Positions 39,242 through 63,836 of a stretch of DNA of 63,836 bases are shown piece by piece. This stretch comes from Candidatus Thorarchaeota archaeon (lineage in GTDB: Archaea > Asgardarchaeota > Thorarchaeia > Thorarchaeales > Thorarchaeaceae). The stretch covers positions 1 to 63,836 of the forward strand of contig PRDI01000110.1 in NCBI GenBank assembly GCA_003345595.1, given 5' to 3'. Each line of letters starts with the position of its first letter. The first letter of the stretch is position 1. The notes beneath the pieces are model-generated. The model made no database searches, was not told where the DNA came from, and worked only from the letters and a program-made list of their open reading frames with translations. Both the position numbers and the translations under genes were made by a program.

Positions 39242-39727
39242 CTACTCAAGGACACTCTTAGAATCTTCAAAGCATTGATTCTCCTTGTCCATCTCAGCCA
39301 AGATCTGCATCTGCACCTCGTCGACGAACTGCTGAAAATACTCATCAATAGCCTTCCAGACAATCGGCACACCCTGAATCTGACTACGATTCTTAATGAT
39401 ATTTTGACGGCAGAAGATCCAGGCTTCCACGGCGATACTAAGAGAGTACTTCTTAATCACTTTCAAGCCAAGCTTGCGACTCCTGATAACGATTTGTTGT
39501 TTCCAGTCGTCAAAAAGCTTCATAATGATCTCCTCAGTAACCGGGGAGCAAATAACTTCTCCATCGGCGATGCCTTCATTAACACGGTACTCGTCAAAAC
39601 GCTTCTTAGCCTCGGCAAAAACCTCGGAAGACAACGCGTAGATCGGCTGGAGAAGGTCTTTAATTGCCTCTTGGACCTTGAGCAATCGCTTCCTCGCTTG
39701 GTTCTTCTTCAAACTTTTCCTGTCCAT
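39242..39727 (-). CDS. Hypothetical protein
   Basis: GGAGG RBS before MDRKS. Confidence 0.6.
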   Translation of the reverse strand: MDRKSLKKNQARKRLLKVQEAIKDLLQPIYALSSEVFAEAKKRFDEYRVNEGIADGEVICSPVTEEIIMKLFDDWKQQIVIRSRKLGLKVIKKYSLSIAVEAWIFCRQNIIKNRSQIQGVPIVWKAIDEYFQQFVDEVQMQILAEMDKENQCFEDSKSVLE

Positions 39728-40452
39728 TCTGTTCCTCCTGACCGTCTTTCTTGCCACACTTGTTTCATCTTAATAGAAATCTTGTCTTTGATTTCTTTAG
39801 ATTGTGTCCTACCTACATGTTGCCCAGCATACTCAGGTAACTTTCGCCCTTTCATTTTTCTACGCTGTTGTTCTTTTTGTTCTTCGGTTCGTATCTTTCC
39901 TTTATTTGCAATCCCAATCTTTCTTCGTGTCTCATCAGATGTTATATGTCCCTTAAGAGATTTTGCTCTTTTCTGTACAACTTCATTGGGTTGTTTTCTT
40001 CCTCTCAAAATAGTACTCATTTTCTTTCCATATTCTTCGGGGTAAATACGTCCCTTATTTGCAACACTAATTTTCTGTCTTGTCTCAATGGATGTTATAT
40101 GCCCTTCAAGAGCTGCTCCTATTTTTCTTTTCGTTTCTCCTGACAATTTATTTCCTGCTGTATTTCCATCTCCACCCATCGTCAAATTATAACCAAACTG
40201 GGGATCAAACGACTTATAGAACTGGATCCAGTACTTTTCCTTCTCGTTAAGTTCTTGTTTGGACTCAGCTTGATCAATCACTTGCCAGTCAAAGTTCCCG
40301 ACGCCATACTTTCGAAGAGCATTATGAAAATAAACTCTACTCCCTCGCTTTGCATCATACAAATGATAATACTTACGCGCATTCAACGACATACATGTTT
40401 TCCCGATATAAAGCATACCAGTACAATAACAAATAACTTTATATATTATCAT
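39709..40452 (-). mobile_element. GIY-YIG homing endonuclease with NUMOD3 repeats
   Basis: IIYKV..LYIGKT..R..H; GYNLTMGGDG; repeated (H)xSxETRxKIS; AT-rich. Confidence 0.9.
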
Positions 40453-47972: not shown

Positions 47973-48200
47973 TTACCAATCTCGATTTTCTACGGACCGC
48001 CGAATGTTAACGATCGCCTTCCTCTGCCCAGGCGTGACTGACTTGTTCTCCACGATGTGGTCACGGATGCCCTGGATTGTGTCTGAGGCGAAGTCATAAT
48101 CGTCGTCGAAGAGCATCTTGTCACACTGGTCGAGAATGGTTCTCCACTCTTCCTCTTCGGCCTGGTGCTCATCGACGGCTTCTTGCAACCGCTTGTTCAT
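47973..48200 (-). CDS. Hypothetical protein
   Basis: ATGA overlap with the polymerase stop. Confidence 0.55.
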   Translation of the reverse strand: MNKRLQEAVDEHQAEEEEWRTILDQCDKMLFDDDYDFASDTIQGIRDHIVENKSVTPGQRKAIVNIRRSVENRDW

Positions 48201-50878
48201 TCTCTGCCTCCTCCAAGATACCCACATCCGTTCATCACGGCCCAGGTCCCGTCTACTTCGCTCCGCTCCTTCTCGAGGAGCAGGGGGACGATGATCCACT
48301 TCCAATCCTGCGCCACCTTCTCCATACCATGGTAGCGGACTGTCTCATCCAGCCAAGCCTCGTCGTCAGGATTCACGTCGAAGAGCATCGAGTCATGGAT
48401 CTCCATGATCGGCAAGATGTCCTTCTTCTCGTCGACGATCCTCTGCGACACCTCGGACAAGGTCTTGAGCTTGACGTGTGAGGCTGGGCCCTGAACCGGG
48501 TAGTTCACGACTTGCATGAACGACATCGGCCCGTAGCAGCGGAACCCGGTGACTTGCTCAATATACCCCTTCTTTTCGTAGGACTTGAACAAATCACGGC
48601 GGTTCTTGTCGTAGATGGGGTAGCGCACACCCCAATAGTCCTTCTCGTAGGCAATCATCCTCTTAGTAAAGCCTTCGAGGTCCTTGATGCCAATGTGTAC
48701 CCTGAGATGACGCTTGATGTCGTCTGGGAGCTGCTCCCACATCCCTGCCGCAGCTGACTTACCAGACGAGCCGTAGACTGAAGGGAAGACGAAGCCGTTC
48801 TTGGACGCCTGCCGCACCTGCTTGGCGATCTTCTTCTCGATCCCCTCCCAAGGCATCCCATACTCGTCAGTCAGGTACAGAATCTCGATCGCTGTATCGC
48901 GGTGCATGTCCTTCGACGTGTCCCGGCAATAGGAGAGCCAGTTGGGGTCCCGGAAGACGCAGCCCGCGATCGAGACCTCCAGAGCCTTGTAGTCATACTC
49001 GATGATCCGATGACCCGGCCGCGGACGGATGATCGAGCGGATCAAGTTCTTGACCTGCTCGTCTCGCTTTGGCACGTTCTGGAGGTTGGGGTCGAAGGAG
49101 GAGGAGCGGAAGGTATCCACGTTGCCCAGACCAAAGTTGGCATGGAGCAGGCCATTCATCACCTCCCGCTCGTACTGACCCAGGTAGGTCGTCAAGACCT
49201 TCGACCAATGGCGGTAGTCGACAATATCATGAACCATCGGAATATCCGCGTCGATCTTCTCCAGAGCTTCCTCGTCAGTACTGGCCTTGTCCAACCCAGT
49301 CTTCTTCTTGACCTCGATGCCCATGATGTCGTACAGGAGGTGGGAGAGTTGGGGGCCTGACTTGAAGTTGAACGCCGTCAGGCCATCCCACTTCTTGACC
49401 TCGGGACTGGAGTCGATTCGGTCCTTGATGCACTCGAGGCGCCTGGTGATCTTGGTCTTCACCGACTTGAGTTCGTCCATGTCGACGCAGACGCCATTCT
49501 GCTGCATCCGTGCCAAGCTGCCCACGGACTCGAAGAAGAAAGCTGCGCCACGGCCGGTGTGGGGATCTTTCTTGAACGTCTCGTACTGATCGAGGAAGAT
49601 CTTGTAGGTGAAAAAGGAATCTTCGGCACCATACCGTAGGAGCTTCTTCTGGTCAGCCTCGTCAATCCGGTTGAATGAGTTGCAGGAGTCGTTGTCCTCT
49701 CCCTGCTTCTTGGTCTCGATGTAGTAGTCAACGTCCTGGTCGTATCCCAGGACGCCGAACTTCGTGTAGACGAGGAACTTCAATCCGCACGACCGCTTGT
49801 TGTCGATGATGTGCGCGCCGAGCATAGTGTCCCAGCGGCACTTCATGTCCAACTTCGTGCCCAGGATCTCCATCGACCACATCTCCTCGAAGGACATGTG
49901 GTGCGCGATGACCCCAGTATGATTCTCGTCGCACGACTGAAGGAGCTTGGCCCACCACTTCCCCGTCTCCATGGTGTTCTTGAACGCTCGGGTCTTGACC
50001 CCATCGCAGAAGGAGACCACTCGAATCCCGTGTCCCGCCCTGTGGGGCTTCAGGCCAGTGGTCTCGTAGTCGAAGGTGAGCCATCGGGGCTGCTCGGCCA
50101 TCTCGGCCTTGATCCACTCGATTGCTGTCGCCTCGTCGTCTGTCGTCTGGATATCGCCATAGTCGAGGGTGGGCACGGGCTCATCGGCCAAGTCGATAAT
50201 ACGCTGGAGCTGTCGCCGGTACATCGCGGCGAGGACTTTGTCCTCCTGCTCCTCCCGATCTCTCCTGCCTTCATTCTGGAGGCGGAGGAGGTAGGAGGGG
50301 TGGTAGAGCGGGCAGATCCATCGCCCGGTTTCTTGGTCGGGGATTGTCATTCCCACCCAACTACTATACGGCACATTTTTAATTCTGCCTACCAGCCTAG
50401 GCCCCAGGTAGGAGTCGAAGGCCGGCTGGCCAATCAAGACAACGACTTTCGGCTGGTAGACCTCGATCGTGTTCAGGAGGTTTTCTCGGCAGATCCGAAG
50501 CTCCTTGGGCGTCGGCGTGCGGTTGTCCGGCGGCCGGCAGATCACTGCGTTTGTCTTCCAGAAGTCACGATCCAGGTCAGCCCCGAGGTCTTCTAGTGCT
50601 GTCCTCAGGTAGTGGCCCGACTTGCCGATCAGCTGGATCCCCTCCTCATCTTCTGTCTTCCCCGGAGCTTCTGCGACGATAAGGATGCCTTTCTCGCCTT
50701 TGCCCGTTGGGGGCATCTTTGGCGACTGGCAGGTCTTGTACAACCCGCAATCCTCGCAGGTCTCATTCTCCTTCTTGGTCAGGTTGGAGGACCTGCGAGG
50801 GGGGCCGGAACGAGAAGAACTCGGCCTGGAGGTCTTGGTCACTTCCAGGCCGAGCTGCTCGAAGAAGCCTTGTTTCAT
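48197..50878 (-). CDS. polA: Family A DNA polymerase with N-terminal family-4 UDG-like domain and 3'-5' exonuclease
   Basis: CEDC..AEAPG..CRPP..HPSYLLR; FDYETTG; PNLQNVP, DYKALE, RQASKNGFVFPSVYG, EIHDS. Confidence 0.92.
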   Translation of the reverse strand: MKQGFFEQLGLEVTKTSRPSSSRSGPPRRSSNLTKKENETCEDCGLYKTCQSPKMPPTGKGEKGILIVAEAPGKTEDEEGIQLIGKSGHYLRTALEDLGADLDRDFWKTNAVICRPPDNRTPTPKELRICRENLLNTIEVYQPKVVVLIGQPAFDSYLGPRLVGRIKNVPYSSWVGMTIPDQETGRWICPLYHPSYLLRLQNEGRRDREEQEDKVLAAMYRRQLQRIIDLADEPVPTLDYGDIQTTDDEATAIEWIKAEMAEQPRWLTFDYETTGLKPHRAGHGIRVVSFCDGVKTRAFKNTMETGKWWAKLLQSCDENHTGVIAHHMSFEEMWSMEILGTKLDMKCRWDTMLGAHIIDNKRSCGLKFLVYTKFGVLGYDQDVDYYIETKKQGEDNDSCNSFNRIDEADQKKLLRYGAEDSFFTYKIFLDQYETFKKDPHTGRGAAFFFESVGSLARMQQNGVCVDMDELKSVKTKITRRLECIKDRIDSSPEVKKWDGLTAFNFKSGPQLSHLLYDIMGIEVKKKTGLDKASTDEEALEKIDADIPMVHDIVDYRHWSKVLTTYLGQYEREVMNGLLHANFGLGNVDTFRSSSFDPNLQNVPKRDEQVKNLIRSIIRPRPGHRIIEYDYKALEVSIAGCVFRDPNWLSYCRDTSKDMHRDTAIEILYLTDEYGMPWEGIEKKIAKQVRQASKNGFVFPSVYGSSGKSAAAGMWEQLPDDIKRHLRVHIGIKDLEGFTKRMIAYEKDYWGVRYPIYDKNRRDLFKSYEKKGYIEQVTGFRCYGPMSFMQVVNYPVQGPASHVKLKTLSEVSQRIVDEKKDILPIMEIHDSMLFDVNPDDEAWLDETVRYHGMEKVAQDWKWIIVPLLLEKERSEVDGTWAVMNGCGYLGGGRE

Positions 50879-51927
50879 TCCTTGCCCTCGGTGTACGCGG
50901 CCAGGAAACACTTGCAGTTATCGCCGATGAAGACGAGGCGCTTCAGACCCTCGGTCGACTTGATGGCGAAGGTCCTCGACTTCTCGAGCGCATACAAGGC
51001 GGCGGACGACTCGAGAAACACCGTGATCGGCTGATCGAGGCCAGCAGGTATCTCCTCCCAATCGAGCTTCTCGTCGTACTTTCCAGTCGCACGCTCGGAC
51101 GACGCTTCGATGAACTCCTTGTCGAAGACCATCTTGATAACCGCCAGGCCAGACATCTCGGAGGAGAGGACCGACGCGCGGCCAATCATCGACTTGAAGC
51201 TCGTAGGCAGCTTGCCCTTCGGGTCTTCCTCGGTGGGAGTGATCTGCTCGATCATCGCCGTGATCTTGTCAAGCGGGTAATCAACGTCCATCTTCCTTCG
51301 CCCAGAGACAATAGTTCCATCGCCGAGCTTGACGAACACTCGCTGGTCGGACTGGGCCAGCTGGACAAAGTCCTGGAACTTGAGGAGCTCGGTGACGACC
51401 TTCTCCTCGAGGAGGAAATCGCCGGCCGTCTCCTTCATCTCGAAGTAGTTTACCCTCTTGGAATCGACCGAGAGAGCAAGCTTCCCCTTCACCCTGACGC
51501 CTTCGAGATTGTACTCGCGGACGCCGAGGAGGCAGAAGGAGAGGGCGTCGCGGAAGTCGTCAGGCATCGGGTACCAGACGAGCGACTCGAGGGCCATGTT
51601 ATCGACCTGCTTGAGGACGGACTCTTCGAGAAAGGTGAATAGAGCCTTAGACCGACCACTACAAACCTCCAGCCCGTTGTCGAGGACATTGATATCAACT
51701 TTCTCCATCGTGTACTTGGACAAGAGGGAAAAGAACTCAGTGGCCCGGATCGACCCCTTGAGAAACTTGAACTCGTCCCCCAGGTGGATCGACAAGGCGA
51801 CGAAGTCCTTGAAGGTGTGGACATAGCCGTCCTTGAAGGAGAAAGCATTATTCAAAAACTCTCCTTTCTCCGAGCCCACGATCGCGTTCTGAAGCGATTG
51901 AAGTAGCCGCTCCCTATTCACTTCCAT
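50875..51927 (-). CDS. Sliding clamp (beta-clamp-like)
   Basis: 350 aa, MEVNRERLLQSL start, DSKR, DYP; adjacent to the polymerase with a DnaX-like loader nearby. Confidence 0.65.
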   Translation of the reverse strand: MEVNRERLLQSLQNAIVGSEKGEFLNNAFSFKDGYVHTFKDFVALSIHLGDEFKFLKGSIRATEFFSLLSKYTMEKVDINVLDNGLEVCSGRSKALFTFLEESVLKQVDNMALESLVWYPMPDDFRDALSFCLLGVREYNLEGVRVKGKLALSVDSKRVNYFEMKETAGDFLLEEKVVTELLKFQDFVQLAQSDQRVFVKLGDGTIVSGRRKMDVDYPLDKITAMIEQITPTEEDPKGKLPTSFKSMIGRASVLSSEMSGLAVIKMVFDKEFIEASSERATGKYDEKLDWEEIPAGLDQPITVFLESSAALYALEKSRTFAIKSTEGLKRLVFIGDNCKCFLAAYTEGKE

Positions 51928-53284: not shown

Positions 53285-53465
53285 GTACTCTCCTTCTTTC
53301 CTTCTACTACGCTCTTCGGGATGAACTTTCCAATTCGTCCGACCAGCTCCTGGCGCAGATCCTCAGCGGATCCAGGGCCGATGATGAGCATAGGCTCCTT
53401 TACTCCGCACTTTACTGCGCTCATCTATGCCAGGTTGATCCGGTCGAGCATCAGCATGGATAACA

Positions 53466-54572: not shown

Positions 54573-54872
54573 CTACTCCTTCTTCTTTGCCAGGACGGCA
54601 AGGTTGACATCGCCACAGTAGCAGTCGTTGCAGAGGAAGATCTCCACACCAAGCTCGGCGTGCTCCTTGTCGTCCATGGCTACCGAAACTACGTCCGGCT
54701 TCGAGGTCATCACCTCCGCCAGACCCAGGTGACCACCGAACATCTGGCTGAGGCCCAGCGTCTCCCTCGCTGCCTGCTGACTGACGACAGCGGGCGAATA
54801 TCTGACGACGTGGAAGATCGGATTGATCGGTCCCCCACACTTGTCGCACGGACGCAATTCTGACAGCTTCAT
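54573..54872 (-). CDS. Small Cys-motif protein
   Basis: CDKCGG...LCNDCYC; ATGA overlap with the queC stop. Confidence 0.6.
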   Translation of the reverse strand: MKLSELRPCDKCGGPINPIFHVVRYSPAVVSQQAARETLGLSQMFGGHLGLAEVMTSKPDVVSVAMDDKEHAELGVEIFLCNDCYCGDVNLAVLAKKKE

Positions 54873-55519
54873 AGCCAAGCCTCGTAAACCGTGTTGTCGA
54901 AGCCCGCAAGAGCCTCCCTTCGTTCAGTGCATGCACCACACTTGCCGCAATGGCGAACGCGACCCTTATAGCAAGTCCAAGTATCATTCCCGTAATCAAT
55001 ACCCAGATCATGGCCGATGAGGCCGATATCACGCTTGGTCTTGTATGTATAAGGGGCCTCAAGGACAATCCTTGCGTAGGTCCCATACTTCATCGCGTTA
55101 GCCATCGGCTCGATAAACGTGTCCCGGCAGTCCGGGTAGATAGCATGGTCACCAGCGTGGTTGGCGATCAGGACGGACTTGCACCCGCAGGACTCCGCGA
55201 TGCCACAGGCGATCGAGAGCATAATCCCATTCCTGAACGGGACGACAGTGAGCTTCTGGTTCTCGTCCTCATAATGCCCTTCGGGAATGTCACCACCCCC
55301 ATAAAGCAAGTTGGACTTGAGATCAGGAAGGAGGCTGGACAGGTCGATAAGCGACCAGCTTATTCCCAGCTTCTCACAGTTGCACCGCGCGAAGTCGAGC
55401 TCCTTCTTGTGCTTCTGCCCATACCAGAAGGACAGTGCTCGCTTAATGTTGTCCTTCTGCTCGTAGAGGAGAGTGATCGAATCCATGCCCCCACTCGTCA
55501 CGATAAGCTTATCTCGCAT
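54869..55519 (-). CDS. queC: 7-cyano-7-deazaguanine synthase
   Basis: SGGMDS, YGQKH, VPFRN, YPDCR, CY..CGKCGAC. Confidence 0.95.
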   Translation of the reverse strand: MRDKLIVTSGGMDSITLLYEQKDNIKRALSFWYGQKHKKELDFARCNCEKLGISWSLIDLSSLLPDLKSNLLYGGGDIPEGHYEDENQKLTVVPFRNGIMLSIACGIAESCGCKSVLIANHAGDHAIYPDCRDTFIEPMANAMKYGTYARIVLEAPYTYKTKRDIGLIGHDLGIDYGNDTWTCYKGRVRHCGKCGACTERREALAGFDNTVYEAWL

Positions 55520-55572
55520 TTCTTCCTCCTAGTAATAAGGGCCAGGAATTCTTCCCAGACCGTTTCTTCCTC

Positions 55573-55603
55573 GTTTCAATCCACGTTCTCATCTGAGAAC
55601 GAC
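55573..55603 (-). CRISPR. Solitary type I-C-like CRISPR repeat unit (no array)
   Basis: GTCGTTCTCAGATGAGAACGTGGATTGAAAC: GTCG start, 7-bp stem, TGGATTGAAAC end. Confidence 0.65.
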
Positions 55604-56304
55604 TAGCCCTTCGTCAAAGACAAGAACTCCGCTTGAACTTCTGGTTCCTCGAAGCAGCCCCGGATTGCCGAGGTCACTGTCTTGGCTTGAACCTGCTTAG
55701 CACCCCGCATCTTCATGCAGTAGTGCGTTCCCTCGACCCAGACGCCTACACCCAAGGCCTCGACGCCTTTGAAGAGTTCCTCTGCAATCTCCTCAGTAAA
55801 GGTCTCCTGAAGGACTGGACGCTTGGCCAAGACCTCAGCCAGGCGGGACAGCTTCGAGATCCCTAGGACCTTCCCGTTCGAGATGTAGGCGACAGTGATG
55901 TCGTACTCGACGGGCAAGAAGTGGTGAGGACACATCGAGAAGGCCTTGACGTCCTTCACGACGATCATCTCCTTCACCTCAGCAGGGAAGGAGGTTCCGA
56001 GGATCCGCTGAACCTGCTTGTCCGTGTCCTTCACGCCGCGGAAGATCTCCGCGTACGCCCTGGCCACTCTCCTCGGCGTGTCCTTAAAATTGACGTCCTC
56101 CAGGTCCAGGCCGAAGGCATCATGGAGACCTTCGAGGATCGTCGTCATCCCTTTCTCGATCTTCGCCACGCCTACGAACTCCGACTGGAGGGACTGCTTG
56201 GCCGCGAGGTATCGCTCTTCGCACTTCACGCAGAGAGTCAAATCTCCTTCCTCGGAGTTGCCGCCAGTCAAGGCAGCTCCGCACCGCTGGCACCTCTCTT
56301 CCAT
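55603..56304 (-). CDS. folE: GTP cyclohydrolase I with N-terminal CxxC...CxxC extension
   Basis: DTPRRVARAY, SMCPHHFLP, GISKLSRL, LQE, HYCMKMRG; GGAGGAGG RBS. Confidence 0.93.
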   Translation of the reverse strand: MEERCQRCGAALTGGNSEEGDLTLCVKCEERYLAAKQSLQSEFVGVAKIEKGMTTILEGLHDAFGLDLEDVNFKDTPRRVARAYAEIFRGVKDTDKQVQRILGTSFPAEVKEMIVVKDVKAFSMCPHHFLPVEYDITVAYISNGKVLGISKLSRLAEVLAKRPVLQETFTEEIAEELFKGVEALGVGVWVEGTHYCMKMRGAKQVQAKTVTSAIRGCFEEPEVQAEFLSLTKG

Positions 56305-56324
56305 CACTGTACCTCCTCCATTTT

Positions 56325-56471
56325 TCATTCTCCGTGTCTCCCATATATTTTCCATCTCTTTAGTTGGGCAAGTCGCATATTTTCCCTAGTTTTCTCTGAA
56401 ATCTTGCACCCCACAACCTTTCTACACAACCACAAAACTCAGGAATATCCTGCCCAGTCCTCATACTTCAC
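56325..56471 (-). pseudogene. Possible homing endonuclease remnant (NUMOD3-like)
   Basis: ..EDWAGYS*VLWLCRK..GCKISEKTRENMRLAQLKRW, with an internal stop. Confidence 0.3.
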
Positions 56472-63103: not shown

Positions 63104-63836
63104 TCAGTCCTCCTTCTGCGTGACAATATAATCTGCGTACCTAGGCCAGGCTGCTTTGTAGCTGGCAACCGATCCCAAAGACACGTAAATACATCGTCCG
63201 CTTTTGTTTTCGTCAAAAGCAGAATTGCCCAAGGCTGGCACGCTCGTGGCGTTTATCGTGACTGATGTCAAGCTCGTGCAGCCATAGAAGGCGGTATCCC
63301 CAATGCTGGTCACAGAATCAGGAATCGTAATCGATACTAAGCCTTCGCAGCCATAGAAAGCATCATCCCCGATGCTGGTCACTGAATCGGGAATCGTAAT
63401 CGATACTAGGCCTTCGCAGCCATAGAAGGCATCATCCCCAATACTGGTCACTGAATCAGGGATGGTGATCGATGTCAGGCTCTTGCAGCACGCGAAGGTG
63501 TCATTCCCAATGCTGGTCACAGAATCGGGGATCGTGACTGATGTTAGTCTCTCGCAGCACGCAAAAGCTGATTTCCCAATGCTGGTCACTGAATCAGGGA
63601 TCGTGACCGATACGAGGCTTGTGCACCACGCAAAGGCGTAACTCCCAATGCTGGTCACCGAATCGGGGATGGTGACTGATGTTAGACTGTCGCAGCCATA
63701 GAAGGCGTCATTCCCAATGCTAGTCACGGAATCGGGGATGGTGATCGATTTTAGGCTTGTGCACCACGCAAAGGCGTACTCTCCAATGCTAGTCACTGAA
63801 TCAGGAATCGTGACTGATGCAAGGCTCTTGCAGTCA
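63104..63836 (-). CDS. BspA-type (LRR_5) leucine-rich repeat protein, 5' end outside window
   Basis: 23-aa repeats LTSVTIPDSVTSIGxxAFxxCxx; C-cap IYV..SVASYKAAW..YADYI. Confidence 0.9.
   Translation of the reverse strand, partial: DCKSLASVTIPDSVTSIGEYAFAWCTSLKSITIPDSVTSIGNDAFYGCDSLTSVTIPDSVTSIGSYAFAWCTSLVSVTIPDSVTSIGKSAFACCERLTSVTIPDSVTSIGNDTFACCKSLTSITIPDSVTSIGDDAFYGCEGLVSITIPDSVTSIGDDAFYGCEGLVSITIPDSVTSIGDTAFYGCTSLTSVTINATSVPALGNSAFDENKSGRCIYVSLGSVASYKAAWPRYADYIVTQKED

Follow-up and report, generated by a model that had tools for sequence, protein, structure and literature searches.

A solitary type I-C CRISPR repeat at the folE end of a phage que operon, a candidate protein-free, RNA-guided homing element

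The DNA analysed here (the window) is the whole of contig PRDI01000110.1, 63,836 nt in length, which carries capsid-, terminase- and polymerase A-type genes together with a queD-queE-folE-queC-queF cluster. On the minus strand of this cluster, folE (55603..56304; GTP cyclohydrolase I, 233 aa, with a possible 250-aa start at 56355; PF01227, E 5e-53) is followed by queC (54869..55519; PF06508, E 1e-50) and a small Cys-containing gene (54573..54878). Between folE and queC lies a solitary type I-C repeat of 31 nt (55573..55603, minus strand), assigned by geometry and fold. The contig is binned with an archaeal assembly, as seen from the presence of ribosomal protein L19e, and a bacterial-type phage contig is probably mis-binned there; Cas1, Cas5d and Cas7 were not found in this archaeal metagenome-assembled genome (MAG), which is 83% complete. 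Among cultured phages, the best matches of the capsid protein reach just 28–29%.

Several other stretches of the minus strand are of interest in their own right. An open reading frame running off the contig end (1-3560) comprises about 53 tandem repeats of 17 residues (51 nt) and probably encodes a tail fibre or adhesin; the DNA polymerase A (48197-50911) has an N-terminal uracil-DNA glycosylase domain that is kept in relatives; and a BspA-type leucine-rich repeat protein (63104-63796; PF13306) is encoded in this phage. A 181-nt gap with a possible short open reading frame (53285-53465) separates queF from a 292-aa gene without Pfam match, its place being taken by an 82-aa gene in the relative L038 and by no gene in other relatives. 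Endonuclease-like genes are also present. A free-standing GIY-YIG endonuclease gene with a NUMOD3 motif (39709-40452) lies upstream of the terminase region, and about 160 nt between queE and folE (56305-56467) are missing in close relatives, whose genes overlap there; one frame of this stretch resembles a NUMOD3-like endonuclease remnant by eye, and Pfam finds nothing in it. In the relative L011, QueD is extended by a fused C-terminal region that weakly matches DUF559 (L011:787-1695) and a 49-aa HNH remnant follows queC (L011:3742-3888); an HNH domain is also present in several FolE homologues. These HNH pieces within the cluster suggest competition among homing elements for the locus.

The repeat reads in the sense direction of the que operon, with which it would be co-transcribed, as the preliminary description implied, and its first G is at the same time the last base of the folE TAG stop codon. 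Two nucleotides are followed by a 7-bp stem (55601-55595 with 55590-55584), a 4-nt loop and an 11-nt 3' tail starting with UGG (55583-55573), which is the geometry of type I-C repeats; the fold has a free energy of -9.0 kcal/mol, accounts for 84% of the ensemble and has a z-score of -2.1. One match to the type I-C pattern is found in the window, against none in any of 100 shuffles, and neither the window nor the 2.7-Mb assembly holds a second copy, the next best match having nine mismatches. The preliminary description had taken this sequence for a genuine solitary type I-C repeat, placed in the sense direction directly at the folE stop, and it is borne out on both points. Given the substrate geometry and cut site established for Cas5c (PMC8524198), the predicted cut falls between 55584 and 55583, and the 11-nt tail would become the 5' handle of a crRNA. 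The Cas5c of Bacillus halodurans mainly reads the three bases after the cut and tolerates changes in the loop (PMC8524198).

A comparison with known repeats, from which the preliminary description had expected a host prediction, retrieved arrays from Oscillospiraceae and Bacillota MAGs that share the 7-bp stem and all but the last base of the tail, but did not yield the host: these nearest arrays have repeats of 33 nt, and 124 spacers include no match to the phage or to any relative, the best having 8 mismatches in 30. Genuine repeats of 31 nt with the same tail and a 4-nt loop are found at loci L022 and L027. The exact repeat and guide patterns gave zero matches in viral contigs, comparison of the repeat with cultured phages returned just two short chance matches, and an Rfam scan of the window found no family.

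As one intergenic repeat in a viral genome without cas genes, the sequence is by definition a solitary repeat unit (SRU), a kind of unit that can act as an RNA anti-CRISPR (Racr), and the preliminary description proposed a decoy, in which the repeat RNA would titrate Cas5c and Cas7 and thereby shield the phage from host immunity. Such a role would suit a solitary phage repeat, given that RacrIC1 is likewise found directly behind a gene, as part of a bicistronic RNA, and that any non-targeting crRNA can dampen interference (PMC10651486). The genes next to the repeat are que genes. Against a decoy, no promoter consensus was found directly upstream of the repeat, and further observations on the downstream DNA and on related phages, set out below, bear on this proposal.

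The 53 nt between the repeat and queC, read in the folE frame, constitute a second FolE C-terminus (beginning EEETVWEEFLALI...), that is, the displaced original folE 3' end, now in spacer position (55520..55572, minus strand), as judged by its folE-frame translation, a FolE C-terminus profile and the relatives. A profile built from 91 FolE tails gives 24.4 bits for the real tail and 18.3 bits for the displaced one, which thereby ranks second among 127,590 window peptides; the other 127,588 reach 4.4 bits at best. Since the displaced tail scores as a FolE C-terminus, the folE end is duplicated around the repeat. Its first 34 nt (55572-55539) are the predicted guide, within which hairpins are no stronger than in shuffles, and the queC ribosome-binding site (RBS; 55530-55525) lies inside the displaced end. 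The 10-nt direct repeat at this RBS, noted in the preliminary description, is present in the window but absent from the relatives L011 and L038, and is thus not a conserved feature. Upstream of the repeat, folE now ends in a replacement tail with its stop codon (55603..55650, minus strand), directly preceded by TTC (55651..55653), which is the Phe codon of an RGCF motif and at the same time the type I-C PAM (PMC11640852). The replacement tail has 16/34 mismatches to the guide and, hence, should not be a self-target. In the assembly, which is probably not that of the host, no guide target was found, with no match under 12 mismatches. Read-through of the folE stop into the in-frame second tail was also considered and rejected; it would need two different stops to be read through, and the units of other lineages are built otherwise.

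Related loci were gathered via FolE homologues of 61–91% identity, which gave 14 lineages including the window. Among these, L038 holds an empty allele, in which TTC is directly followed by the uninterrupted spacer sequence, ending with a proper stop, an RBS and the queC start. This protospacer has 0/34 mismatches to the guide of L011, which carries a repeat at the same place, and 3/34 mismatches (positions 9, 10 and 16) to that of the window, leaving positions 1–8 intact; the target search for the 34 nt downstream of the repeat, as suggested in the preliminary description, thus led to a PAM-flanked match of 31/34 in a relative. As TTC and protospacer are continuous in L038, the unit can be defined as a replacement tail, a stop and a repeat inserted between PAM and protospacer. 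Empty and filled alleles coexist, with the recognition site split by the insertion (L038 versus L011 and the window), as is expected of homing elements. The carriers keep the TTC. Where counted, their own new tails depart from the guides at between 9 (L011) and 16 (window) of 34 positions, seed included; hence, as in virus-borne mini-arrays, the spacer matches related viruses with the correct PAM, and the carrier itself is not matched.

Seven of the 14 lineages carry a unit at the folE or queC end, always with one repeat, and not with the two or more that define a mini-array. The repeat follows the folE stop in five lineages (the window, L011, L013, L018 and L039) and the queC stop in two (L012 and L014/L015/L040), the queC end being empty in the window. 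No repeat is seen in L001, L016, L017, L019, L037, L038 and L043, with the available sequences of L019 and L037 ending before the end of queC. Six units have a copy of the end of the neighbouring gene behind their repeat. The L014 unit instead has a piece of the small Cys-containing gene found after queC in relatives, and homologues of this gene hold a TTC-flanked counterpart of the L014 spacer; the gene is destroyed in L014, where the repeat unit has deleted its start and the truncated remnant forms the spacer (L014:2053-2160). Altogether, there are four spacer registers, and for each of them, related genes have TTC in front of the corresponding position, or TTT in more distant lineages. With TTC at about 2% of positions here, the naive probability that all four registers follow TTC is below 1e-6.

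Across the units, the 11-nt tail of the repeat is invariant in 7/7 and the full 7-pair stem is present in six, with three pair types at stem position 4, while loops are reverse-complemented between units (window versus L011; L014 versus L039). Loop inversions and varied stem pairs suggest a long residence of the repeat in phages; the stem variants could as well be separate captures from different host repeats. The units of all seven lineages lie within about 0.8 kb, and the rest of the window and of the retrieved flanks yielded none.

This distribution bears on the two functions put forward in the preliminary description. For the decoy, a PAM-registered spacer matching relatives is not needed, and the repeat is missing in about half of the relatives. 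As a main account, it predicts neither the PAM-registered displaced gene end nor the better match to the relatives' empty alleles nor the presence and absence of the unit among near-identical phages, and we regard it as quite improbable, although a decoy effect may still occur on the side. The other proposal is that host Cas5c processes the que mRNA and so tunes folE versus queC, coupling DNA modification to the CRISPR state of the host. A sense-strand repeat between the two genes, 53 nt before the queC start, would suit this purpose, but the position varies between the folE end in five lineages and the queC end in two, about half of the relatives run the operon repeat-free, the L014 unit destroys the gene behind it, and the same three observations are not predicted; this coupling is very improbable as the main story.

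Similar arrangements appear in other phages. A scan of viral contigs for short I-C repeats after TAG returned 17 loci, in which, beyond arrays and stemless matches, a duplicated gene end was found at L028/L031 (terminase end), L021 and L030 (capsid gene end). At the site homologous to that of L028, examined in 80 related loci, TTC precedes in 55 matches and TTT in 15, the carrier having TAT; an unrelated phage family (L028/L031) has the same design at the end of its terminase gene. In L021, the phage's own copy of the duplicated gene end follows TTC. For L030 and L029, the latter without clear duplication, the available relatives are too distant for a PAM comparison. Solitary I-C-like repeats also follow small phage genes at L020:3217-3290 and L034:6534-6600, where the downstream DNA may be an alternative gene end.

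The reading that we favour, with a probability of roughly 55%, is that the guide directs the host's Cascade-Cas3 against empty alleles of co-infecting relatives and that the unit spreads by the repair that follows. That it represents a class of protein-free, RNA-guided homing elements, in which one repeat plus a replacement tail sits at a PAM-protospacer junction, host Cascade-Cas3 serves as the endonuclease, re-targeting is local and unrelated phage families are involved, is proposed more tentatively, at somewhat less than even odds. The sequences themselves show the architecture, the PAM register, a matching empty allele, the self mismatch, presence and absence among close relatives, and short foreign tracts around the insert.

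Mechanistically, the unit would be a protein-free mini-CRISPR of about 80 bp, for which the old tail of the gene becomes the spacer. Host Cas5c would cut the operon mRNA at the stem base, releasing the 11-nt handle plus guide, which the host Cascade would load without a second repeat. Cascade assembly is known to start from the 5' handle (PMC7684278), and lone I-C repeats in Neisseria give rise to Cascade-loaded guides with an 11-nt handle and no second repeat (bioRxiv 10.1101/2024.12.27.630466). Cascade-Cas3 would then attack co-infecting relatives with an empty allele, and repair from the carrier genome would copy the unit, turning the recipient's own tail into a new spacer. New registers would probably arise by PAM-aware adaptation or by host-spacer recombination that joins a nearby protospacer to the repeat. 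Gene ends would suit the unit because it has to supply a functional tail, and Phe codons may offer a PAM that is not easily lost.

Signs of movement come from two lineages. L011 and L038 differ by 3 mismatches in 609 nt of upstream folE and by 21 mismatches in the 86 nt around the PAM (-41 to +45; Fisher P 1e-17), and are identical from the spacer start to +86. L039 equals L012 over the 60 nt before the PAM, while its tail is 49/51 identical to that of the distant L018, of which it also has the repeat type; the spacer of L039, in turn, resembles the native tails of L012 and L013. Both cases have the appearance of short conversion tracts, with the recipient's tail remaining as spacer, and would fit the co-conversion expected of homing. 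Direction and cause of transfer can only be inferred, however, because the region is mosaic in general, with L011 and L038 being 94–98% identical in blocks, and because L038 has private bases within the tract (-36 to -25). The homing reading has further points against it. Cas3 degrades DNA over long distances (PMC11640852), which fits awkwardly with short conversion tracts. Just one exact pair of empty and filled alleles was found, the other guides having 4–10 mismatches to their best empty allele, and the window guide has three mismatches to its sole known target. The non-synonymous codon changes of the window spacer and the broken L039 stem described below, the archaeal assembly without Cas1, Cas5d or Cas7, and a search for host spacers that gave no match likewise count against homing.

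Signs of decay are seen as well. Compared with L038, the window spacer has four changed codons, all of them non-synonymous, and has lost the old stop; the window copy is probably ageing, with a guide that has drifted. The L039 repeat has lost one stem base, which breaks the stem. Both the drift and the broken stem would also be expected if the unit were a scar of escape, left when a host-targeted phage recombined with a host array and took up the repeat in place of the PAM along with a second gene tail, an event that was once useful and is now neutral, with the unit moving by ordinary recombination. Such an origin accounts for the exact PAM register and for a spacer that is continuous with native downstream DNA, and leaderless phage mini-arrays have been proposed to stem from recombination with host arrays (PMC6858448, PMC7099407). 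It does not readily explain why the units of seven lineages are confined to about 0.8 kb, with none found elsewhere in the window or the retrieved flanks, nor why one repeat type with an invariant 11-nt tail goes with different spacers and occurs at both gene ends; the inverted loops, too, suggest a long stay in phages. In addition, the replacement tail keeps the TTC, so that the carrier is protected by the divergence of its tail. We consider a scar unlikely, albeit less so than the other alternatives.

Another possibility is that the guide destroys co-infecting relatives to the benefit of the whole carrier genome, the unit itself not being copied. This exclusion of competitors fits all the targeting evidence, and carrier-sparing mini-arrays against adjacent genes of related viruses were reported by Faure 2019, according to the discussion in PMC6858448. 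However, exclusion does not require an insertion exactly at the PAM junction of the target, and it leaves the short foreign tracts in L011 and L039 unexplained, which makes it distinctly unlikely as the full explanation.

Solitary repeats of viruses have mostly been read as decoys; in this case, the DNA behind the repeat can be read as a guide in PAM register with the homologous locus of sister phages, of which L038 provides an exact empty allele. If the homing reading is true, these units of about 80 bp would be among the smallest selfish elements and a class 1 CRISPR counterpart of TnpB homing with no protein encoded, and a part of the catalogued solitary repeats and Racr candidates would be selfish elements. 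A duplicated gene end downstream of the repeat together with a PAM before the homologous site provides a simple computational criterion by which catalogued solitary repeats can be sorted, and homing would offer a possible cause for the fast turnover of gene ends in phage DNA-modification operons. In the literature searched, which covers few subscription journals, we found no paper on a single repeat at the PAM junction of its own target with a replacement tail, or on homing by single repeats or mini-arrays.

Of the systems described so far, virus-borne mini-CRISPR arrays (Medvedeva 2019, PMC6858448; Faure 2019, according to PMC6858448 and PMC11656645) come close in that a viral guide without cas genes relies on host Cas proteins, close relatives are targeted, sometimes in adjacent genes, and the carrier is spared. 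In contrast to mini-arrays, the window unit has a single repeat and no leader, and its spacer is the displaced end of its own gene running into native DNA; units of this type sit at the PAM-protospacer junction of their own target and bring a replacement gene tail. In these papers, exclusion is discussed and homing is not. With SRUs and Racrs (Camara-Wilpert 2023, PMC10651486), the unit shares a single repeat in a phage intergenic region, in the case of RacrIC1 also following a gene in one transcript. However, Racrs are decoys with no described target, while the window guide is matched almost perfectly, next to a PAM, within a coding region of a sister phage. Viral Cracr RNAs (bioRxiv 10.1101/2024.10.29.618823) are directed at promoters of cas or toxin genes; the present guide derives from phage coding sequence. 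In the regulatory I-C crlRNAs (bioRxiv 10.1101/2024.12.27.630466), a lone I-C repeat likewise yields an 11-nt handle plus guide, and the PAM is TTC, but their limited pairing to promoters in host cas loci leads to repression without cutting, whereas the pairing of the unit can be complete.

Restorative homing by TnpB/IscB (OMEGA) of IS200/IS605 and IS607 elements (PMC13565253) follows the same logic, as the element sits between motif (TAM or PAM) and target, its guide is read out of the element's end from flanking DNA, and the empty site is the sole target. Unlike these elements, the unit is devoid of a nuclease, a transposase and a scaffold RNA; it would move between phage genomes by means of a class 1 effector of the host. 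Finally, the intronless homing of T4 Seg and Mob endonucleases (PMC2988022, PMC13565253) also involves a promoterless operon passenger with a target in a conserved neighbouring gene, sparing of self by sequence differences, and co-conversion tracts; in contrast to Seg and Mob, the unit is RNA-guided and protein-free, and its insertion site is its target. Since the unit, at about 80 bp and without any gene, encodes no nuclease of its own and would borrow the host's Cas3, it stands outside both the homing endonuclease and the OMEGA families.
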